DNA of 64,000 bases from Candidatus Nitrosocosmicus sp. (lineage in GTDB: Bacteria; Methylomirabilota; Methylomirabilia; Rokubacteriales; CSP1-6), in assembly GCA_035654455.1 (NCBI GenBank), contig DASRWT010000033.1, positions 3,975 through 67,974 on the forward strand. Direction: 5' to 3'. The position numbers and the translations under genes were made by a program. Shown piece after piece: positions 1,722 through 11,425 of the stretch (within the stretch, counting starts at the first letter, position 1; each line of letters begins with the position of its first letter). The notes below the pieces were generated by a model. That model saw only the letters and a list, made by a program, of their open reading frames with translations, was not told the DNA's origin and ran no database searches.

Positions 1722-2177
1722 TCACAGGCGAACGACGGTGATGCCGCGGACCTTGGCCACCACGTCGTTGTCGGCGTCGGTGATGGTGGTCTCGCGCACC
1801 ACGAAGGCCATGGGGCCGGACTTGCCGGATTTCTCGTAGATGTCGGAGATCCGCGCGCGGCACAGCAGGGTGTCGCCGGGCCGGATGGGCTTCCACTGCT
1901 CGAACTCCTGCTCTCCGTGGAGGATGCGGGAGATGTCGGTGCCCAGATCCTTCAAGAGAGAGCCCGTATCCGCCTTCTCGTCCTTGAAGGTGATGGCGAA
2001 GGTGGGGGGGGCGATGATGTCGCCCCACGGAGACGCGCGCCCCACCTCGTCGTCGAGGTAGAAGGGGGAGAGGTCGCCGATGGCGCGCGCGAACTCCTTG
2101 ATCTTGCCCCGCTCCACGTGAACCACATAGGGCGCGTACTCCTTGCCCTTGATGCTCGTATTGATCTGGATGGGCAT
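1722..2177 (-). CDS. MaoC N-terminal-like hotdog subunit (HadA / FAS1-dehydratase-type partner)
   Basis: 151 aa (MPIQINTSIKGKEYAPYVVHVERGKIKEFARAIGD...HGEQEFEQWKPIRPGD). This is the pattern of the non-catalytic partner in heterodimeric MaoC hydratases. It is adjacent to and co-directional with 1265..1714. Confidence 0.75.
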   Translation of the reverse strand: MPIQINTSIKGKEYAPYVVHVERGKIKEFARAIGDLSPFYLDDEVGRASPWGDIIAPPTFAITFKDEKADTGSLLKDLGTDISRILHGEQEFEQWKPIRPGDTLLCRARISDIYEKSGKSGPMAFVVRETTITDADNDVVAKVRGITVVRL

Positions 2178-2186
2178 GGGATCTCC

Positions 2187-2594
2187 TCAGCGGGCGGGGC
2201 TGCCCTTGGCCATGGCGCGCTCGAGGAAGCGCGCGAGATTTCCGACGATGAAGCGCTCGTGACGGCCCTCGACGATCTTCTCCACCTCGTCCCAGGCTTC
2301 CACCGTGAAGAGCACGCGCTTGCCGTCGGTCTCGACGATGGTCGCGCGGGCCCGCACCGTCATCCCCAGCGGGGTGGCGGCGAGATGCCTCATCTCCACC
2401 ATGGTGCCCACCGACCCGCCGCCGGCGGGGAGGTGAGGCCTGAGGACCGCGCTGGACGTGCTCTCGAGCAAGGCGATCACGCAGGGAGTGGCATAGACGA
2501 GGACGCCCGGATTCCCCAGGCTGTCCGCCGTGAGCTCGCGGGTGACGGTGAGGGAAGTCTCGGCGGACATGCCCGGCGCCAGCGTCGAGGTCAT
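2187..2594 (-). CDS. thioesterase-superfamily hotdog protein (FlK-like acyl-CoA thioesterase)
   Basis: 135 aa. The layout ...VYATPCVIALLESTSS...GSVGTMVEMRHLAATPLGMTV...GRHERFIV resembles fluoroacetyl-CoA-thioesterase-type hotdog proteins. Same operon as the MaoC pair. Confidence 0.65.
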   Translation of the reverse strand: MTSTLAPGMSAETSLTVTRELTADSLGNPGVLVYATPCVIALLESTSSAVLRPHLPAGGGSVGTMVEMRHLAATPLGMTVRARATIVETDGKRVLFTVEAWDEVEKIVEGRHERFIVGNLARFLERAMAKGSPAR

Positions 2595-2628
2595 GGGTCT
2601 CTCTTCTACCGCGACCGGCGCGCCGGGG

Positions 2629-3363
2629 TCAACGGGCGGGGAAGAGGACCATCTGCAGGCCGCAGAGCACGAGCAGGGTCTCGATCAGGCGCAGGAAGGT
2701 CCGCTCGGTCATCCGGTCGAGGAGCCGGCGGCCGATCCACGCCCCCGCGATCATGATGACGCCGATGTAGATCCCCACCGTGACGGTGGATTCCGTCAGC
2801 AGGTGATAGCGCTGGAACACGACGCCCCGGGTGAAGTAGGAGCCGACGGTGCAGAGGGCATCCGTGGAGACATAGGCCCCGCGAAGGAGGCCATAGCCCA
2901 GGAAGAATGGGCTCAGGATCGGGCCCACCCCGCCCACCAGGGAGGACAGGAAGCCGAACACCCCGCCGATGAGGGGAAAGTGGGCCAGGCGCACCCGCAT
3001 GCCGCGAGCCTTGAGCCACCGGCGGCCAGGGACGGCGACGAGGAGGAAGCCGCCCAGCAGGCGGCTGATCCACGCGCCCTCGATGGACGAGTAGAGGATG
3101 GCGCCCACCACGCCCATGGGGATGGCGCCCACCAGGTAAGCCCCCACCACGCGATAGTCGATCTCGCGGCGGCTGAACCAGACGCGCGCGCCATTGCCGA
3201 TGAACATGCCGATGGTGAGCACGGGCACGGTGGCCTTGGCGCCGAGGGTCCACGCGATGACGGGAATCATCATGGCGCCGGTGCCGAAGCCGGCCACGCC
3301 GCCGATGGAGGAGGCGACCATGGCGGCCACGCCCAGCGCGAGCCAGCCGGACGGCTCCGGCAC
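2629..3363 (-). CDS. TauE/SafE family anion (sulfite/organosulfonate) exporter
   Basis: 244 aa, multi-pass hydrophobic protein with repeated GxGGG-type motifs (SSIGGVAGFGTGAMMIPV, SLVGGVGPILSPF) typical of TauE/SafE permeases. Confidence 0.8.
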   Translation of the reverse strand: MPEPSGWLALGVAAMVASSIGGVAGFGTGAMMIPVIAWTLGAKATVPVLTIGMFIGNGARVWFSRREIDYRVVGAYLVGAIPMGVVGAILYSSIEGAWISRLLGGFLLVAVPGRRWLKARGMRVRLAHFPLIGGVFGFLSSLVGGVGPILSPFFLGYGLLRGAYVSTDALCTVGSYFTRGVVFQRYHLLTESTVTVGIYIGVIMIAGAWIGRRLLDRMTERTFLRLIETLLVLCGLQMVLFPAR

Positions 3364-3364
3364 C

Positions 3365-4156
3365 CTAGCGGCGAGCCGGGCGGGGTCGCGATCCCTTGAG
3401 CGGCATGAGGCCGTTCAGCGCGAGCCGGCCTCCGTCCACGTACACGGTGGTCCCGGTCATGTAGGAGGACGCGTCGGTGGCGAGGAACAGCGCCACGGAG
3501 GCGATCTCCCGGGGGTCGGCCACCCGCTGCATGGGCGTGCGCGAGTACACGGCGTCGCGCCAGGCCTTCTTGCGGAGGAGATGCCGGGTGAGGCCTGTCA
3601 CCACGGTACCGGGGCCGATGGCGTTCACGCGGATGCCGTACGGCGCCAGCGAGATCGCCATGGCCTTGGTGAGCTGGCGCACCGCGCCCTTGGCGGCGCC
3701 GTAGGCTGCGGATTCCGGCCGCACCACCTCCGCGTTCACGGAAGAGAGCGTGATGATGACGCCGCGCCGGCGGGGGACCATCCGCCGCGCCGCCGCCTGC
3801 GCGACGAGAAAGGTGCCCTTGAGGTTGGTATCGAGCACGCGGTCCCAGGTTTCCTCGGACAGCTCCAGGAAGGGCACGATGGGCTCGATGGCGGCGTTGG
3901 TCACCGCGATGTCGAGCCGCTTCCACCTGCGCTCGATGGCGGCGAAGCCCGCCGCCACCGACGCGGAGTCGGCCACGTCCATGTGCAGCGCGAGCCCGCG
4001 CCCCGGGCCCAGCCCGCGCGCGGTGGTGGCGGCGGTGCGTGGGTCGATGTCCGCCACCGCGACGCGCGCGCCCTCGCGGGCGAAGGCGCGCGCGATGGCC
4101 TCCCCGATGCCGCGCCCGGCGCCGGTGACGAGCGCGACCTGATTTCGTAATCGCAT
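3365..4156 (-). CDS. SDR family oxidoreductase (FabG-like)
   Basis: 263 aa. Cofactor motif VALVTGAGRGIGEAIA, NAA and YGAAK catalytic motifs. SD GAGGAGG lies 10 nt upstream of ATG 4156. Confidence 0.9.
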   Translation of the reverse strand: MRLRNQVALVTGAGRGIGEAIARAFAREGARVAVADIDPRTAATTARGLGPGRGLALHMDVADSASVAAGFAAIERRWKRLDIAVTNAAIEPIVPFLELSEETWDRVLDTNLKGTFLVAQAAARRMVPRRRGVIITLSSVNAEVVRPESAAYGAAKGAVRQLTKAMAISLAPYGIRVNAIGPGTVVTGLTRHLLRKKAWRDAVYSRTPMQRVADPREIASVALFLATDASSYMTGTTVYVDGGRLALNGLMPLKGSRPRPARR

Positions 4157-4206
4157 TCGACGAAAACCTCCTCGATATTGCTGAACAGCCCGGCTAGTAT
4201 ACTCTG

Positions 4207-5391
4207 GTGTCCGTCGCCCTCGCCGCGCTTGGCGCGCTGGTGGTCTCGCTCGACGCCTCGGTGAACATCGCGTTTCCCGCCATGTCGGCGGCCTTCGGGG
4301 TGGGCCCGGTCTCGATTCGCTGGGTGATCGTCTGCTACGTGCTCACCTACGCGCTCACCGCCTTTGGCGCCGGCCTGCTCGCCGATCGCTTCGGGCCGGG
4401 CCCGGTGTTCACGGCCGGACTCTGGATCTCCGCCGCCGCCTTCGCGGGCTATCTCGCGGTGGGGTCCTTCGGCTTCCTCCTCGCCGCTCGCGTCCTGCAG
4501 GGTGTAGGCGGCGGCCTCATCTACGGCACCGCGCCTGCGCTGATCACGCTGGCGCTGCCGCGGGAGCGCCACGGATTCGGGCTCGGCCGCCTCGCGCTCG
4601 GCATGGGGATCGGGCTGGCGGCGGGGCCCATCATCGGGGGCGCCCTGGTGGACGCGTCCGGCTGGCGCGCGGTCTTTCTCTATCGCGCGCCGCTCGCCCT
4701 CACGGTGGGCGCGGCTTCGCTGCTGCTCCTGCCGCGCGGCGGCCGAGGCGGCGCGTGGCGCCTGCCGCCGCGGGAAGAATGGCTGCGCGGCCGCGTGCTG
4801 GGCGCGCTGCTCCTCGCCGCCCTCGCGAACTGGGCGCAGTTCGCCGTGTGGCTCCTGGTGCCGTACTACCTCGTGGGCGTGCTCGGTCTGCCCGCTGCCC
4901 GCGCGGGGTTCCTCTTCATGATGACGCCGCTGAGCACCGCCGCCATGGCGCCGCTGGCCGGCCGCATCACCGATCGCGCGGGTCCGCGGCTGCCCATCAC
5001 GCTGGGGCTGACCGTCGAGGCCGCCGGGCTCCTTCTCATCAGCCGTCTCGACGCGTCCTCGTCGTGGCCCGTGGTCGGCATGGCGCTGGCGCTGGTGGGC
5101 CTGGGCCTCGGCTTCTTCCAGGTGCCCAATCTCGCCCAGGTGATGCGGGCCTTCCCCGCCGCGCGGCAGGGCGCGGCGGGCGGCCTGGCGTTCATGAGCC
5201 GCACGCTGGGCATCGTCGCCGGCGTCCAGGTCTCCGCGTCGGTGTTCGGCGGCCTCGAGCGCGTGCTGGGCTGGAGCGGAGCGTTCACCGCCGCCTTCGC
5301 GGTCGCCGGCGGCGTGTGCGCCCTCGCGGCGGCGTTCGCGCTGATCTCGATTCGACCCGCGCCCGCGGGGGGGTTGCGGGGGGCGCTATGA
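4207..5391 (+). CDS. MFS transporter
   Basis: 394 aa, about 12 hydrophobic segments. The N-terminus LGALVVSLDASVNIAFPAM and the GRITDRAGPR loop are typical of the drug:H+ antiporter-type MFS group. GTG start, with TAGTAT/TATACT directly upstream. Confidence 0.85.
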   Translation: MSVALAALGALVVSLDASVNIAFPAMSAAFGVGPVSIRWVIVCYVLTYALTAFGAGLLADRFGPGPVFTAGLWISAAAFAGYLAVGSFGFLLAARVLQGVGGGLIYGTAPALITLALPRERHGFGLGRLALGMGIGLAAGPIIGGALVDASGWRAVFLYRAPLALTVGAASLLLLPRGGRGGAWRLPPREEWLRGRVLGALLLAALANWAQFAVWLLVPYYLVGVLGLPAARAGFLFMMTPLSTAAMAPLAGRITDRAGPRLPITLGLTVEAAGLLLISRLDASSSWPVVGMALALVGLGLGFFQVPNLAQVMRAFPAARQGAAGGLAFMSRTLGIVAGVQVSASVFGGLERVLGWSGAFTAAFAVAGGVCALAAAFALISIRPAPAGGLRGAL

Positions 5392-7542: not shown

Positions 7543-8805
7543 CTAGGCCGGACCGCGCCAGCAGCCGGTGATCAGGCGGGCGCCCCGCTTCCAGGTGGTA
7601 TAGGCCCATGCCCACTCGAAGAGGACGAGGAAGCGGTTCCGGAAGCCGATGAGAAACGCGATGTGCACTCCAAGCCAGGCCAGCCAGGCAGGCAAGCCCG
7701 AAAGCCGGAGGGGGCCGACCACGGCGACCGCGGAGGCGCGGCCCACGGTCGCCATGCTGCCGCGGTCGCGATAGCGGAAGGGCAGCGTGGTCTCGCCGGC
7801 AAGGCGGCGCCAGGCATTGACGGCGGCCGCCCGTCCCTGCTGGATCGCCACCGGCGCCACGCCGGGCAGTGGTCCCTCCGTCCCGTGGCTGAAGGCGCAC
7901 AGATCGCCGGCCACGAAGATCTCCGGATGCCCCGGCACCGAGAGGTCGGGAGCGACGGGAATGCGACCGGCGCGATCCAGCGGGACGCCGAGGGTGCGGG
8001 CCAGCGGCGCCGCCGCCACGCCGGCCGCCCAGAGCACCGCGCGGGAGCGGATCTGTTCGCCGCCCACCCAGACCGCGTCGGGCGTGATGCGGGTGACGAG
8101 GGCGCCCGTGCGCACCTCCACGCCGATGCGCTCGAGGCTCTTCGCCGCCGAGCGGGCCAGGGGCTCCGGAAACGAGGCCAGGATCCGGGCGCCGCCCTCG
8201 AGGAGGACCACGCGCGCCTGGGTGGGGTCGATGGCGCGGAAGTCCCGGGCGATGGTGTGGCGCGCGATCTCGGCCAGCGCGCCCGCCAGCTCCACGCCGG
8301 TGGGGCCGCCGCCGATGACCACGAGGGTCAGGAGCGCGCGGCGCTCGGCGCCGTCCTCAGCCCGCTCGGCGGCCTCGAAGGCCAGCAGCACGCGCCGGCG
8401 GATCTCCAGCGCGTCCTCGAGCGTCTTGAGGCCCGGCGCCAGCGCCTCCCAGTCGTCGTGGCCGAAGTAGGAGTGGGTGGCGCCGGCGGCGAGAATGAGC
8501 GCGTCATAGGCCAGCTCGCCGTCGTCGAGCACCACGCGGCGCGCGTGGGGCTCGACGCGCTCGGCGGCGGCGAGGATCACGCGCGTGTCGAGCGCCTTGC
8601 GAAGGACGGAGCGGAGCGGCGTGGCGATGTCGGCGGGGGAGAGCCCCGCGGTGGCGACCTGGTACAGCAAGGGCTGGAAGAGATGATGGTTGCGGCGGTC
8701 CACCAGGGTCACGCGCGCGGCACGCCGCGCGAGGACACGCGCCGCGTTGAGCCCGGCGAAGCCGCCTCCCACGATCACCACGTGCGGCTTCGCGGTCCCG
8801 GGCAT
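7543..8805 (-). CDS. ndh: type II NADH dehydrogenase (NDH-2) / FAD-dependent pyridine nucleotide-disulfide oxidoreductase
   Basis: PHVVIVGGGFAGL and VVIGGGPTGVELAGAL dinucleotide folds, FVAGD motif, hydrophobic C-terminal tail. The upstream in-frame codons (ATT ATA TCC CAA GAT) have atypical third positions, so the start is set at ATG 8805. Confidence 0.85.
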   Translation of the reverse strand: MPGTAKPHVVIVGGGFAGLNAARVLARRAARVTLVDRRNHHLFQPLLYQVATAGLSPADIATPLRSVLRKALDTRVILAAAERVEPHARRVVLDDGELAYDALILAAGATHSYFGHDDWEALAPGLKTLEDALEIRRRVLLAFEAAERAEDGAERRALLTLVVIGGGPTGVELAGALAEIARHTIARDFRAIDPTQARVVLLEGGARILASFPEPLARSAAKSLERIGVEVRTGALVTRITPDAVWVGGEQIRSRAVLWAAGVAAAPLARTLGVPLDRAGRIPVAPDLSVPGHPEIFVAGDLCAFSHGTEGPLPGVAPVAIQQGRAAAVNAWRRLAGETTLPFRYRDRGSMATVGRASAVAVVGPLRLSGLPAWLAWLGVHIAFLIGFRNRFLVLFEWAWAYTTWKRGARLITGCWRGPA

Positions 8806-8833
8806 GTCCGCATCTTGGGATATAATCCCCTCC

Positions 8834-9883
8834 ATGACAACGGCACTCGTCTCCAAGCGTCATGTCGTCGCGGACATCAGCCTGGCCATGGAGCTCTGCT
8901 ACGAGCGCGGCTGGACGGACGGCCTCCCGGTGGTGCCTCCCACCGAGCCGGCGGTGCGGGCCATGCTCGCGGCGGCCGAGCTCGAGCCGGACCATCAGAT
9001 CGCGTTCATCACCAATCGCCAGGTGGCGGTGACGGCCGAGAAGGTCGCCATCAACGCGGTGATGGCGGGGTGCCTGCCCGAGTACATGCCCATCGTGGTC
9101 TCGGCGGTGGAGGGCATCGCGGAGCCCGTGTGGGGCTATCACGGGCCCGCCACCTCCACCGGTGGCGCCGCCGTCTTCATGATCATCAACGGCCCCATCG
9201 GTCCCCGCCTGGGCTTCAACTGCGAGGACAATCTCTTCGGGCCGGGCTGGCGCGCCAATGCCACGGTGGGGCGCGCGGTGCGCCTGGTGATGCGCAATGT
9301 CATCGGGACCCTGCCGGGCCTCCTCGACCGCGGCACCATCGGGAATCCCGGAAAGTACACCTATGTGATCGCGGAGAACGAGGCGGAGAGTCCCTGGACG
9401 CCGCTGCACGTCGAACGCGGCTTCGCCGCCGGCGAGAGCACGGTGACGGTGATGTCCGCGGAGGGTCCGCGGCAGTTCTACAACCAGCTCTCGAGCACGC
9501 CGGAGGGCATCCTCAAGACGCTCTGCGACGACATGCGCCACCACAACAGCACGGGGGGCCAGCCCCAGTACGTGGTGGTGCTGGCCGGCGAGCACATGCG
9601 GACCATCGCGGCCGGGGGCTGGAGCAAGTCCGACATCCGGAAGTACGTGTTCGACAATACCCAGGTCAGCATCGCCCACTTCAAGCGCACGGAGCGGCTG
9701 CCCGGGTCGGTGACCCCGCAGGACGAGACCACGTACAAGTCATTGCTGGCCGAGCCGGAGGACGTGCTCGTGGTCGCCGCGGGCGGTCGCGCGGGCGCGT
9801 TCTCGTGCTATATCCCGGGCTGGGCGGGCGGCCGCCGCTCCTCCCGGTCGGTAACGAAGCTCATTCGTGAGAGGAGAGCCTGA
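8834..9883 (+). CDS. conserved hypothetical protein (349 aa), upstream partner of the UGSC selenoprotein gene
   Basis: ATG 8834 lies 7 nt after TATAAT (8821-8826). Consistent G/C third positions. MTTALVSKRHVVADISLAMELCYERGWTDGLPVVPPTEP... has no TM segment or signal peptide. Its stop TGA 9881-9883 overlaps the next ATG. I cannot assign a named family. Confidence 0.75.
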   Translation: MTTALVSKRHVVADISLAMELCYERGWTDGLPVVPPTEPAVRAMLAAAELEPDHQIAFITNRQVAVTAEKVAINAVMAGCLPEYMPIVVSAVEGIAEPVWGYHGPATSTGGAAVFMIINGPIGPRLGFNCEDNLFGPGWRANATVGRAVRLVMRNVIGTLPGLLDRGTIGNPGKYTYVIAENEAESPWTPLHVERGFAAGESTVTVMSAEGPRQFYNQLSSTPEGILKTLCDDMRHHNSTGGQPQYVVVLAGEHMRTIAAGGWSKSDIRKYVFDNTQVSIAHFKRTERLPGSVTPQDETTYKSLLAEPEDVLVVAAGGRAGAFSCYIPGWAGGRRSSRSVTKLIRERRA

Positions 9884-10419
9884 TGGCACCTATCGAAATT
9901 CTCGACCCCACCGTGGAGCCCCGCCGCCAGCCGCTGACCTTCGTGGCGCGCCCCGACTCGCTCAAGGGCAAGCGCGTGGGTCTGGTGGAGAACACCAAGT
10001 TCAACTCCGACCGGCTGCTGCACCGGATCGGCGAGATCCTCATCAACGACTACGGGGCGGCGGAGTGCCGCATGTGGCGGAAGCACAATGCCAGCGTGCC
10101 CGCGCACGTGGAGATCCTCGAGGAGGCCAAGCGCACCGTCGACGTCGTCGTCGCCGGCATCGGCGACTGAGGGTCGTGCTCGTCGGGCAGTGTGCTCGAC
10201 GGAATCCTGATGGAGAAGAACGGCATTCCCGCGGCGTCCATCGTCACCGACGTCTTCGAGAGCACCGGGCGGGCCATGGCCCAGTCGTGGGGGCTGCCCG
10301 CGTACAAGTTCCTGTCCATGCCCCATCCCATCGCCAACCTCTCCGAGGCTCAGCTGGATGAGCGCGCGCGCGCGATGGCGCCGCACGTGGTGAAGCTCAT
10401 CCTCGAGGGTCAGGAGTAG
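9883..10419 (+). CDS. UGSC-motif selenoprotein (in-frame UGA at 10168-10170 read as selenocysteine), 178 aa
   Basis: Track ORFs 9883..10170 and 10192..10419 share one frame. The 21 nt between them keep coding-like third positions. Read-through gives ...VDVVVAGIGD-U-GSCSSGSVLDGILMEKNGIP... A SECIS-like hairpin lies just downstream of the UGA. SD GAGGAG at 9869-9874. Confidence 0.75.
10181..10201 (+). promoter_or_regulatory. candidate bacterial SECIS hairpin
   Basis: CGUCGGGC-AGUGU-GCUCGACG: 8 bp including one G.U pair, with a 5-nt apical loop containing GU. The stem starts 11 nt after the UGA and the loop lies 19-23 nt downstream. This fits the usual bacterial SECIS geometry. Confidence 0.55.
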
Positions 10420-10438: not shown

Positions 10439-11425
10439 GTGACCGAGACCAAGGACTACCGGTCGCCGTGGTGGCTGCGGGGGCGGCATCTCCAGAGCCT
10501 CTGGGGCCCGCTCGTGCGCCGTCCCTCGCGTCCCGCCCTCCGGCGGGAGCGATGGGACACGCCCGACGGCGATTTTCTCGATCTCGACTGGCTCGCGGGA
10601 GATCCCCCCCGCGCCGGCGCGCCCTGCGTGGTGGTGCTCCACGGGCTCGAGGGCTCCTCCGAGTCGCACTATGCCCTTGGTCTCCTTGCCCTCGCCGCCG
10701 AGGCCGGCTGGGCGGGAGTGGTCGTCCACTTCCGCTCCTGCAGCGGCGAGCTGAACCGGCTGCCGCGGCTCTATCACTCCGGGGAGACGTCCGACCTCGA
10801 CTGGGTGATCGGCCGACTCCTGGCCGCGATGCCCCCGCGCCGGCTCGGCCTGGTCGGCGTCTCGCTGGGGGGCAATGTCGCTCTCAAGTGGCTGGGTGAG
10901 CGGGGGGAGGCGGTGCCCGCGGGCGTGGCCGCCGCGGTGGCCATCTCGGTGCCGTTCGACCTCGAAGCCTGCGCCAAGGTGCTGGACCGCGGCGTCAACC
11001 GGGCGCTCTACACCGCGCATTTCCTCCGCACCATGAAGGCCAAGCTCCGCGCCAAGGCTGCGCTCTACGCGGGCCGGGTCGACCTGGCGGGCGCGCTCGC
11101 CGCGCGGACATTCAAGGAATACGACCGGCTGGTCACCGCGCGCATCTTCGGATTCGCCGACGAGCGCGACTACTGGAGCCGCTCCAGCAGCGGGCCGTTT
11201 CTCTCGGCCATCCGCCGGCCCACGCTCCTCATCAACGCGGTGAACGACCCCTTCGTCCCGCCGGAAACCCTGCCGCGGGCCGAGGTGGAGCGCTCCCCCT
11301 GGCTGGAGGCCCACTTTCCGGCCGAGGGCGGGCATGCCGGGTTTCTCGAGGGCGGCGCGGGACCCTCCTGGGCCGAGCGACGCGCGGTGGCGTTTCTCGC
11401 GCGGCATCTCGGCGAAGCCGCGTGA
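10439..11425 (+). CDS. alpha/beta-fold hydrolase (YheT/ABHD1-3-like)
   Basis: 328 aa. N-terminus YRSPWWLRGRHLQSLWGPL, VVLHGLEGSSES, nucleophile elbow GVSLGGN. GTG start. Confidence 0.85.
   Translation: MTETKDYRSPWWLRGRHLQSLWGPLVRRPSRPALRRERWDTPDGDFLDLDWLAGDPPRAGAPCVVVLHGLEGSSESHYALGLLALAAEAGWAGVVVHFRSCSGELNRLPRLYHSGETSDLDWVIGRLLAAMPPRRLGLVGVSLGGNVALKWLGERGEAVPAGVAAAVAISVPFDLEACAKVLDRGVNRALYTAHFLRTMKAKLRAKAALYAGRVDLAGALAARTFKEYDRLVTARIFGFADERDYWSRSSSGPFLSAIRRPTLLINAVNDPFVPPETLPRAEVERSPWLEAHFPAEGGHAGFLEGGAGPSWAERRAVAFLARHLGEAA

Follow-up and report, generated by a model that had tools for sequence, protein, structure and literature searches.

A predicted UGSC-family selenoprotein gene and its conserved pairing with a large unannotated protein family

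Among the major selenoprotein families listed from marine metagenomes is that of the UGSC-containing proteins, a family without an assigned function (Zhang and Gladyshev 2008, PMC2398784). In the Global Ocean Sampling (GOS) data, forms with selenocysteine (Sec) numbered 255 and forms with cysteine 21 (PMC2398784). The family is among the most abundant selenoprotein families of aquatic metagenomes, and its function is still unassigned (PMC2398784; PMC13188914, 2026). A domain fusion named 'UGSC/Unknown_1' was also recorded from GOS reads (PMC2398784, Fig. S1A). Here we describe a UGSC gene in a 64-kb stretch of contig DASRWT010000033.1 (70% GC; hereafter the window), where it is interrupted by an in-frame UGA and preceded by the gene of a 349-amino-acid (aa) protein, hereafter the partner; the two occupy positions 8834..10419 of the forward strand. 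The initial annotation of this DNA was correct in recalling UGSC as a marine-metagenome selenoprotein family of unknown function, and it overstated the novelty of the gene, as Pfam and NCBIfam models exist and NCBI names members.

The closest described system is the UGSC family itself (Pfam PF24696, NCBIfam NF041046). The window protein scored above both cut-offs, carries U-G-S-C at the invariant C-G-S-C column and has a predicted selenocysteine insertion sequence (SECIS) just downstream. At the protein level it showed no difference from the family; the window adds a soil-type host of 70% GC, probably from Methylomirabilota/Rokubacteria. As in 'UGSC/Unknown_1', the fusions described below join UGSC to a domain of unknown function, that of the partner family, and one of them contains Sec. 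'Unknown_1' is probably the partner family. The 2008 report treats the fusion as a curiosity and is silent on the near-universal adjacency of the separate genes (PMC2398784).

Two further systems resemble the pair in layout. In the GrdB/GrdE and PrdB/PrdA reductases, a UxxC small or medium subunit is encoded beside a larger substrate-binding subunit, and resolution by a nearby Cys is plausible, as it would be here. However, UGSC showed no homology to GRDB (PF07355), which was absent when 24 UGSC members were searched with hmmscan at E ≤ 10 (only UGSC and sporadic weak matches were returned). The partner bears no sign of a pyruvoyl-forming proprotein of the GrdE/PrdA kind, with 68 proteins of its family matching no Pfam or NCBIfam family, and UGSC hosts belong to aerobic soil and aquatic lineages rather than to Stickland fermenters. 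The likeness to Sec-dependent reductases drawn in the initial annotation is therefore an analogy of layout only. Class I fumarate hydratase and the Toblerone-fold cyclic amide hydrolases were the best Foldseek matches of the partner, weak ones with E about 1e-3. Two-subunit fumarate hydratases have subunits of roughly 280 and roughly 190 aa, a layout like that of partner plus UGSC. Against this likeness, TM-scores of class I fumarate hydratase to the partner were 0.18-0.34 with a root-mean-square deviation (rmsd) of about 15 Å, the partner has one conserved Cys and not three cluster ligands, and there was no sequence similarity.

The features of the module are as follows.

8821..8826, forward strand: -10-like box TATAAT, found by direct reading, 7 nt before the partner ATG; putative promoter of the partner-UGSC transcript
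8834..9883, forward strand: partner gene, 349 aa, from ATG 8834 to stop TGA 9881-9883
9871..9876, forward strand: Shine-Dalgarno sequence GAGGAG for the UGSC gene, found by direct reading within the partner 3' end, 6 nt before ATG 9883
9883..10419, forward strand: UGSC-family selenoprotein gene, predicted 178 aa, with ATG 9883-9885, Sec96 and stop TAG 10417-10419
10168..10170, forward strand: predicted UGA selenocysteine codon (Sec96), following ...VDVVVAGIGD and aligning with Cys or TGA in homologues
10177-10179, forward strand: Cys99 codon of the UGSC gene, second residue of UxxC
10181..10201, forward strand: predicted SECIS hairpin of bacterial type, with arms C10181-A10189 and U10193-G10201 and loop G10190-U10191-G10192

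The open reading frames (ORFs) 9883..10170 and 10171..10419 make one gene through read-through of the UGA. Past this codon the frame continues as GGG TCG TGC TCG TCG GGC AGT to TAG 10417-10419, with coding signal and homology persisting in the absence of a start codon or Shine-Dalgarno sequence for the second piece, and the product is a 178-aa protein containing GIGD-U-G-S-C-SSGS. In these respects the initial annotation was borne out. Among the TGAs of the window, 10168-10170 alone connects two stretches of high G+C at third codon positions (GC3) into one protein of family length. A second pair of ORFs joined by a TGA (window 1722-2684, reverse strand, TGA at 2189; same frame, high GC3) was considered and rejected, being two ordinary genes for an FlK-like thioesterase and a MaoC-like dehydratase. 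TGA is the ordinary stop of 11 of the 26 confident window genes, the partner included, and the organism has therefore not reassigned this codon.

With U replaced by C, the 178-aa protein matched PF24696 (UGSC) over its full length (192.3 bits against a cut-off of 25, E = 9.8e-57, profile positions 1-170 of 172). With 138.7 bits it also passed the cut-off of 125 set for NF041046, the NCBIfam equivalog "UGSC family (seleno)protein". Searching 5.8 billion proteins yielded 162 relatives, all of them PF24696. Full-length relatives of 174-197 aa (Janthinobacterium, Advenella, Paraburkholderia, Citricoccus and others) have the motif GDCGSCS, and their alignment extends to either side of the TGA, with 40-61% identity and 96-98% coverage. 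The closest relatives (66-84% identity) all end at ...GIGD and represent the same gene cut short by gene callers. Residues D95, C96, G97, S98 and C99 were invariant in the UGSC alignment (A2). By these matches the window gene is a further member of a selenoprotein family that is already known and curated but has no assigned function.

The state of the Sec column was read from two sets of 80 loci each. The metagenome loci (45% to 74% GC) were fetched via the partner gene, so this sample is blind to the Sec/Cys state; six-frame analysis with hidden Markov models found TGA at the Sec column in 68 and TGC in two of 70 UGSC genes, a dominance of Sec forms like that in GOS. The genome loci were fetched via UGSC with the pattern [VI]GDCGSCS[AS], which finds Cys forms only and is uninformative on the Sec:Cys ratio in genomes. 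In 83 Cys-form homologues, aligned on both sides, the column was TGC or TGT. One close relative annotated at NCBI, the partial protein P0179 from a Candidatus Rokubacteria metagenome-assembled genome (MAG), has Arg at this column (GIGD-R-GSC). The Arg codons CGA and AGA are one base from TGA, and the change could be genuine or could stem from an error in sequencing or annotation. We also considered Fe-S ligation through U-x-x-C-x-x-C and rejected it: the residue at the third position is not fixed (G, C, W, S, R or A) and follows a covarying base of the SECIS stem.

The hairpin at 10181-10201 begins at the 11th nucleotide after the UGA, following a 10-nt spacer, and folds equally as nine base pairs with a 3-nt loop or, as the initial annotation had it, as eight base pairs with the loop AGUGU. 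Its conservation was assessed in an alignment of 60 distinct 42-nt segments beginning at the TGA, in which columns 14-34 correspond to the window hairpin. All 60 segments contained a hairpin in the same register. For the nine-pair stem, 88% of cells were paired versus 78.6% in shuffled alignments, and the covariation score was 0.243 versus 0.093, a value reached by none of 500 shuffles; controls in slid registers scored at most 0.112. The inner six pairs showed standard pairing in 356 of 360 cells, with all four exceptions at the loop-closing pair 22-26. Several base-pair types were used at pair 19-29 (UA 37, GU 18, AU 4, CG 1) and at pair 21-27 (CG 48, GC 9, UG 2, UA 1), and the first two loop bases, G-U, were invariant.

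All six inner pairs were formed in 62 of 68 Sec genes versus 14 of 83 Cys genes. The Ser codon in the loop was always AGU in Sec forms and TCG, ACC or GCC in Cys forms. The Cys-form loci L001 and L003 have TCG as this codon and a broken hairpin, although their peptide is the identical CGSCSSGSVLDG; because Cys forms lose the hairpin even with the same peptide, it is kept for the UGA and not for the protein sequence. Peptide variants correspond to paired changes in the RNA: Gly/Leu in SSGSVLD, Cys/His in SSCSVHD, Trp/His in TSWSVHD and Arg/Arg in SSRSMRD. Judging from these variants, compensation in the stem is strong enough to force coupled amino-acid replacements in the protein. An Rfam scan of the whole window returned zero matches, leaving the SECIS without a curated model there. 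The folding-energy z-score of the 71-nt region was -0.27, not significant, which we attribute to the background of 70% GC; comparative evidence was hence required.

The comparative evidence identifies the hairpin as a bacterial-type SECIS. In common with the E. coli fdhF type and the bSECISearch model, it lies inside the coding sequence just after the UGA, has an invariant apical G-U and a stem upheld by compensatory changes in UGSC genes, and places its loop 19 nt from the UGA. The bacterial model allows a loop-to-UGA distance of 16-37 nt, and the UGSC hairpin falls within this geometry. It differs in its short stem (core 6-9 bp) and 3-nt loop (GUN), and a bulged U was not identified. Given the match to the full-length UGSC models, the Cys homologues aligned across the TGA, the TGA in 68 of 70 genes and the covarying, TGA-specific hairpin, we conclude by sequence comparison that UGA 10168-10170 is a genuine selenocysteine codon. 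The comparative proof of a SECIS in UGSC genes appears to be new relative to the searched parts of the UGSC literature.

We then tabulated the neighbourhood of UGSC and partner genes in the two locus sets. The genes were adjacent in 145 of 160 loci, in either order, a coupling far stronger than the initial annotation had claimed. The partner was adjacent and on the same strand in 76 of the 80 genome loci, 4.5 kb away in three more (Nesterenkonia) and absent from one. UGSC was adjacent in 69 of the 80 metagenome loci and 2.3 kb away in one more; in three the downstream flank was cut by the contig end, and seven had none. Partner followed by UGSC, the order in the window, occurred in four genome loci (Burkholderiales, Acidimicrobiales) and 59 metagenome loci; UGSC followed by partner occurred in 72 genome loci (Actinomycetota) and nine metagenome loci, one further metagenome locus having a partial UGSC. 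The first order is found in Methylomirabilota-like and Burkholderiales loci and the second in Actinomycetota, so that adjacency persists through reversal of gene order and down to identities of about 35%. No conserved third gene was found among the Sec-type loci.

Some loci carry several modules or an incomplete one. At L082, two paralogous modules stand side by side in the order UGSC-partner-partner-UGSC, both UGSC copies with TGA. L085 (UGSC-partner-partner) and L089 (partner-partner-UGSC) are fragments, and L029 has two successive UGSC-partner pairs with Cys. In L005 (positions 1-1205, a Burkholderiales MAG), UGSC matched from residue 23 only and no partner was detected in the 1.2 kb before it; L002, which is almost identical, does have the partner, and L005 is possibly rearranged or misassembled.

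UGSC and partner also occur as single proteins. Twelve fusions of 533-560 aa comprised a full UGSC domain, a linker and a partner domain; they kept the Cys of the Sec column and had Ser in place of the second Cys (HCGAS). In L162 (P0495) we found a Sec-containing fusion, ...NGVGH-U-GASTSWSIHD..., with its cognate hairpin. Two MmgE/PrpD-family genes come after this fusion gene (2781-4290), and the gene of a Peripla_BP_6 solute-binding protein comes before it. Another candidate Sec fusion, P0264, was rejected, being simply cut by the contig end.

The Cys-type pairs of Actinomycetota (L006-L080) lie in catabolic islands with genes for aldehyde dehydrogenase (ALDH), zinc-dependent alcohol dehydrogenase (Zn-ADH), short-chain dehydrogenase/reductase, Amidohydro_2, IclR and ATP-binding cassette (ABC) uptake. 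Of the 80 genome loci, 40 contained a Zn-ADH gene and 33 an ALDH gene; where inspected, these genes were immediately upstream of UGSC and partner. NMT1-type and SBP_bac_5 ABC components and AMP-binding ligases also occurred near actinobacterial pairs. This setting favours a metabolic enzyme over a general antioxidant.

The partner belongs to no named family, as the initial annotation had noted: beyond isolated noise, neither the partner nor 67 diverse relatives matched any Pfam or NCBIfam model. It has at least 7,980 homologues, all 'hypothetical'; the few with a named source come from MAGs of Rokubacteria, Methylomirabilota and Binatia, which makes a host of this kind likely for the window. 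Cluster representatives, searched exhaustively, gave 5,298 clusters at 50% identity with E ≤ 1e-3, of which 1,237 had E ≤ 1e-30. Against PDB sequences, the partner profile had no matches and the UGSC profile noise only. The AlphaFold2 model of the partner, built from a 68-sequence alignment, had a predicted local distance difference test score (pLDDT) of 95.1 and a predicted template-modelling score (pTM) of 0.93. Foldseek comparison with the PDB gave only weak matches (E about 1e-3, TM-scores 0.17-0.34, rmsd >10 Å), namely class I fumarate hydratase, Toblerone-fold cyclic amide hydrolases and iminodisuccinate epimerase, and the modelled fold is thus without a close solved relative in the PDB. 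Residue conservation was computed from 158 homologues drawn from both independent locus sets: N142, N155, E181 and W188 were 100% conserved, R147 99%, D29 and R140 98%, and C80 (codon 9071-9073) 97%.

Members of the partner family also stand beside other thiol or selenol proteins. P0284 is a fusion of an AhpC/TSA peroxiredoxin (CxxC) with a partner domain, and P0244 is a partner-family protein with a CxxC N-domain. At L154, the ORF of an AhpC/TSA peroxiredoxin (1667-2144) contains an in-frame TGA where the peroxidatic residue belongs (...FDWGSI-U-TPEL...); about 0.8 kb downstream of it comes a partner paralogue that has no UGSC nearby. At L137 and L151, a UGSC-less partner paralogue is followed (at about 4080-4580) by an ORF resembling DinB and the N-terminal domain of mycothiol-dependent maleylpyruvate isomerase (MDMPI), a thiol-dependent family. 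Thiol or selenol modules of several kinds thus appear to pair with the partner family.

For the fold of the UGSC domain we used the AlphaFold2 model of a fused homologue (pLDDT 83.7, pTM 0.79), in which the domain has five beta-alpha units and the Cys motif connects a beta-strand to the N-terminal end of a helix. Foldseek returned generic flavodoxin-like matches for this model (flavodoxin, lumazine synthase, PTS IIB and the DJ-1-like C-terminal domain of large catalases), with no thioredoxin-fold protein in the top 50. The model suggests that the UGSC domain is flavodoxin-like alpha/beta. The "likely Trx-like fold" given in the literature (PMC2398784) is not supported by this model of the fused homologue.

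Taken with the pairing and the fusions, these data indicate that UGSC and the partner probably form one two-part enzyme. More specifically, we consider it fairly likely that the two make up a heteromeric enzyme in which UGSC supplies a reactive selenol and the partner the pocket. A ribosome reaching UGA 10168-10170 would meet the hairpin at 10181-10201, SelB with Sec-tRNA(Sec) would be recruited, Sec96 would be inserted and translation would run on to the TAG ending at 10419. The UGSC protein would then dock on the partner, whose D29, R140, N142, R147, N155, E181 and W188 could line a substrate pocket and which would also contribute Cys80; so polar and Arg-rich a set of pocket residues suggests an anionic or carboxylate substrate. 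Sec96, as the reactive selenol, would attack either the substrate or an intermediate bound to the partner. Cys99, or Cys80 of the partner, would resolve the adduct or oxidised selenium as a selenenylsulfide, which a cellular thiol reductant would re-reduce. The wider proposal, that UGSC and the 349-aa family constitute a widespread, undescribed two-subunit selenol/thiol-dependent enzyme whose large subunit has no solved fold relative, is in our judgement evenly balanced between true and false.

Several observations weigh against the two-part enzyme. At least seven of the 80 partner loci lack UGSC nearby, which implies that the partner can work without it. The fusions P0269 and P0282 lack Cys altogether in their UGSC motif (AEIGGS, GWSGVY) and keep Cys80 of the partner; the UGSC domain may be only structural, or non-catalytic, in some lineages. 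The model of the UGSC domain derives from a fused homologue and not from the window protein. The neighbours in the window, which are unrelated housekeeping genes, give no clue to a substrate. Finally, as already noted in the initial annotation, no selA, selB, selC or selD was found within the 64-kb window: there was no tRNA by tRNA scan, no match in Rfam, and no SelD, SelA or SelB signature with motif patterns and an E. coli SelD query. Nor was a SelD homologue found in the related loci L001-L160.

The data can also be read as a dedicated redox carrier and its client, with the partner as the enzyme or redox target, its Cys80 re-reduced by UGSC as by a private thioredoxin, and peroxiredoxin-like or other CxxC modules taking the role of UGSC in other lineages. 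We hold this to be a serious but rather doubtful alternative. The partner family greatly exceeds UGSC in size and is found together with other thiol modules (P0284, P0244, L154), Cys80 is almost always kept, and UxxC is typical of dithiol or selenolthiol exchange; yet the fusions retain the Sec-column Cys alone, with Ser for the resolving Cys, which is unusual for a pure dithiol carrier, the fold modelled on the fused homologue is flavodoxin-like rather than thioredoxin-like, and the UGSC family shows near-obligate adjacency in both directions. That one Cys suffices in 12 fusions would instead suit a non-redox enzyme in which Sec or Cys serves as covalent nucleophile. Such an enzyme might be a thiol-dependent cis-trans isomerase, an epimerase or a lyase, in which Sec96 adds transiently to an unsaturated or substituted carboxylate held in the Arg/Asn/Glu pocket of the partner. 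In the fused-homologue model G-D-U-G-S sits between strand and helix, and the nucleophile elbow is a comparable strand-to-helix placement of a catalytic nucleophile. The catabolic islands of the actinobacterial Cys-type loci (ALDH, Zn-ADH, Amidohydro_2, IclR, ABC uptake), the MmgE/PrpD genes flanking L162, the DinB/MDMPI-like genes adjoining partner paralogues and the weak fold matches of the partner, all of them carriers of carboxylate chemistry, point the same way. We nevertheless regard a non-redox role as unlikely: no unfused form (A2) departs from Cys at the second position of UxxC, which speaks for redox cycling, the fold matches reach TM-scores of only 0.2-0.3, and the Sec-type loci have no conserved neighbourhood.

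Two other readings are poorly supported. UGSC could be a free-standing, thioredoxin-like antioxidant oxidoreductase whose adjacency to the partner reflects co-regulation only; the UxxC motif and 'likely Trx-like fold' given in PMC2398784 would fit, as would the abundance of UGSC in oxic aquatic metagenomes. We find this very unlikely in view of the covalent fusions to the partner, one Sec form included, an adjacency that outlasts inversion of gene order across phyla, and the top 50 structural matches of the fused-homologue model, which are flavodoxin-like with none of thioredoxin fold. Alternatively the TGA could be a true stop in a pseudogene or split gene, leaving a 95-aa protein and perhaps a separate 75-aa protein. 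TGA does serve as an ordinary stop elsewhere in the window, the window holds no Sec machinery and all gene callers truncate the protein. Even so, the TGA falls exactly at the Cys column in 68 divergent genes from 45% to 74% GC, coding signal and homology persist downstream without a start codon or Shine-Dalgarno sequence, and a compensated SECIS hairpin is maintained only in TGA forms; a true stop can hardly be credited.

The arrangement of the two genes suggests joint expression. The partner stop and the UGSC start overlap as TGATG at 9881-9885, seen by direct reading as in the initial annotation, and the genes are probably translationally coupled through it. The internal Shine-Dalgarno sequence GAGGAG described there is present and lies 2 nt away from the 9869-9874 given for it. 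A leaderless partner-UGSC transcript starting from TATAAT 8821-8826, as proposed earlier, is plausible in the subclade of the window: L081 and L111, the two closest relatives with upstream sequence (partners 72-73% identical), repeat TATAAT, the 7-nt spacer and ATG without a Shine-Dalgarno sequence, and more distant relatives have AAGGAGG in place of this arrangement. A consensus scan gave no match to a -35 hexamer.

The module is flanked by two further genes.

10439..11425, forward strand: alpha/beta-hydrolase gene with an Abhydrolase_1 match, starting 19 nt past the UGSC stop
7543..8805, reverse strand: divergent gene of a type-II NADH dehydrogenase (NDH-2)-like flavoprotein (Pyr_redox_2 and NDH2_C), starting 28 nt from the partner ATG

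The hydrolase gene is possibly part of the partner-UGSC transcript. It was syntenic only in five close relatives (L081, L082, L083, L089 and L111), and by synteny it lies outside the conserved module beyond this clade. The NDH-2-like gene had no homologue at any related locus. The neighbours across the window (phosphorylase, divergent NDH-2, alpha/beta hydrolase, PspC, TPR, M20 peptidase, GNAT, MscS, amidase and MFS) are unrelated.

The gene itself will not surprise a selenoprotein specialist; the pairing offers a useful handle on an old question. The near-obligate pairing of UGSC with a very large unannotated family appears to be new, not being met in the searched parts of the UGSC literature, and the partner represents a very large protein family missing from both Pfam and NCBIfam. 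For annotation, split UGSC ORFs should be merged. The UGSC hairpin offers a clean SECIS example in which RNA structure dictates coupled substitutions in the encoded protein. If the two-subunit reading is true, one of the most abundant environmental selenoprotein families would have stood in the catalogues for about 20 years with its catalytic partner missing, and co-expression of the pair would make its function testable. Since UGSC is almost never encoded without the partner, the isolated 178-aa protein is likely to be unproductive, and the pair would be the unit to express, crystallise and assay, with the Cys-type pairs of cultivable Microbacterium, Citricoccus and Paraburkholderia as tractable models.

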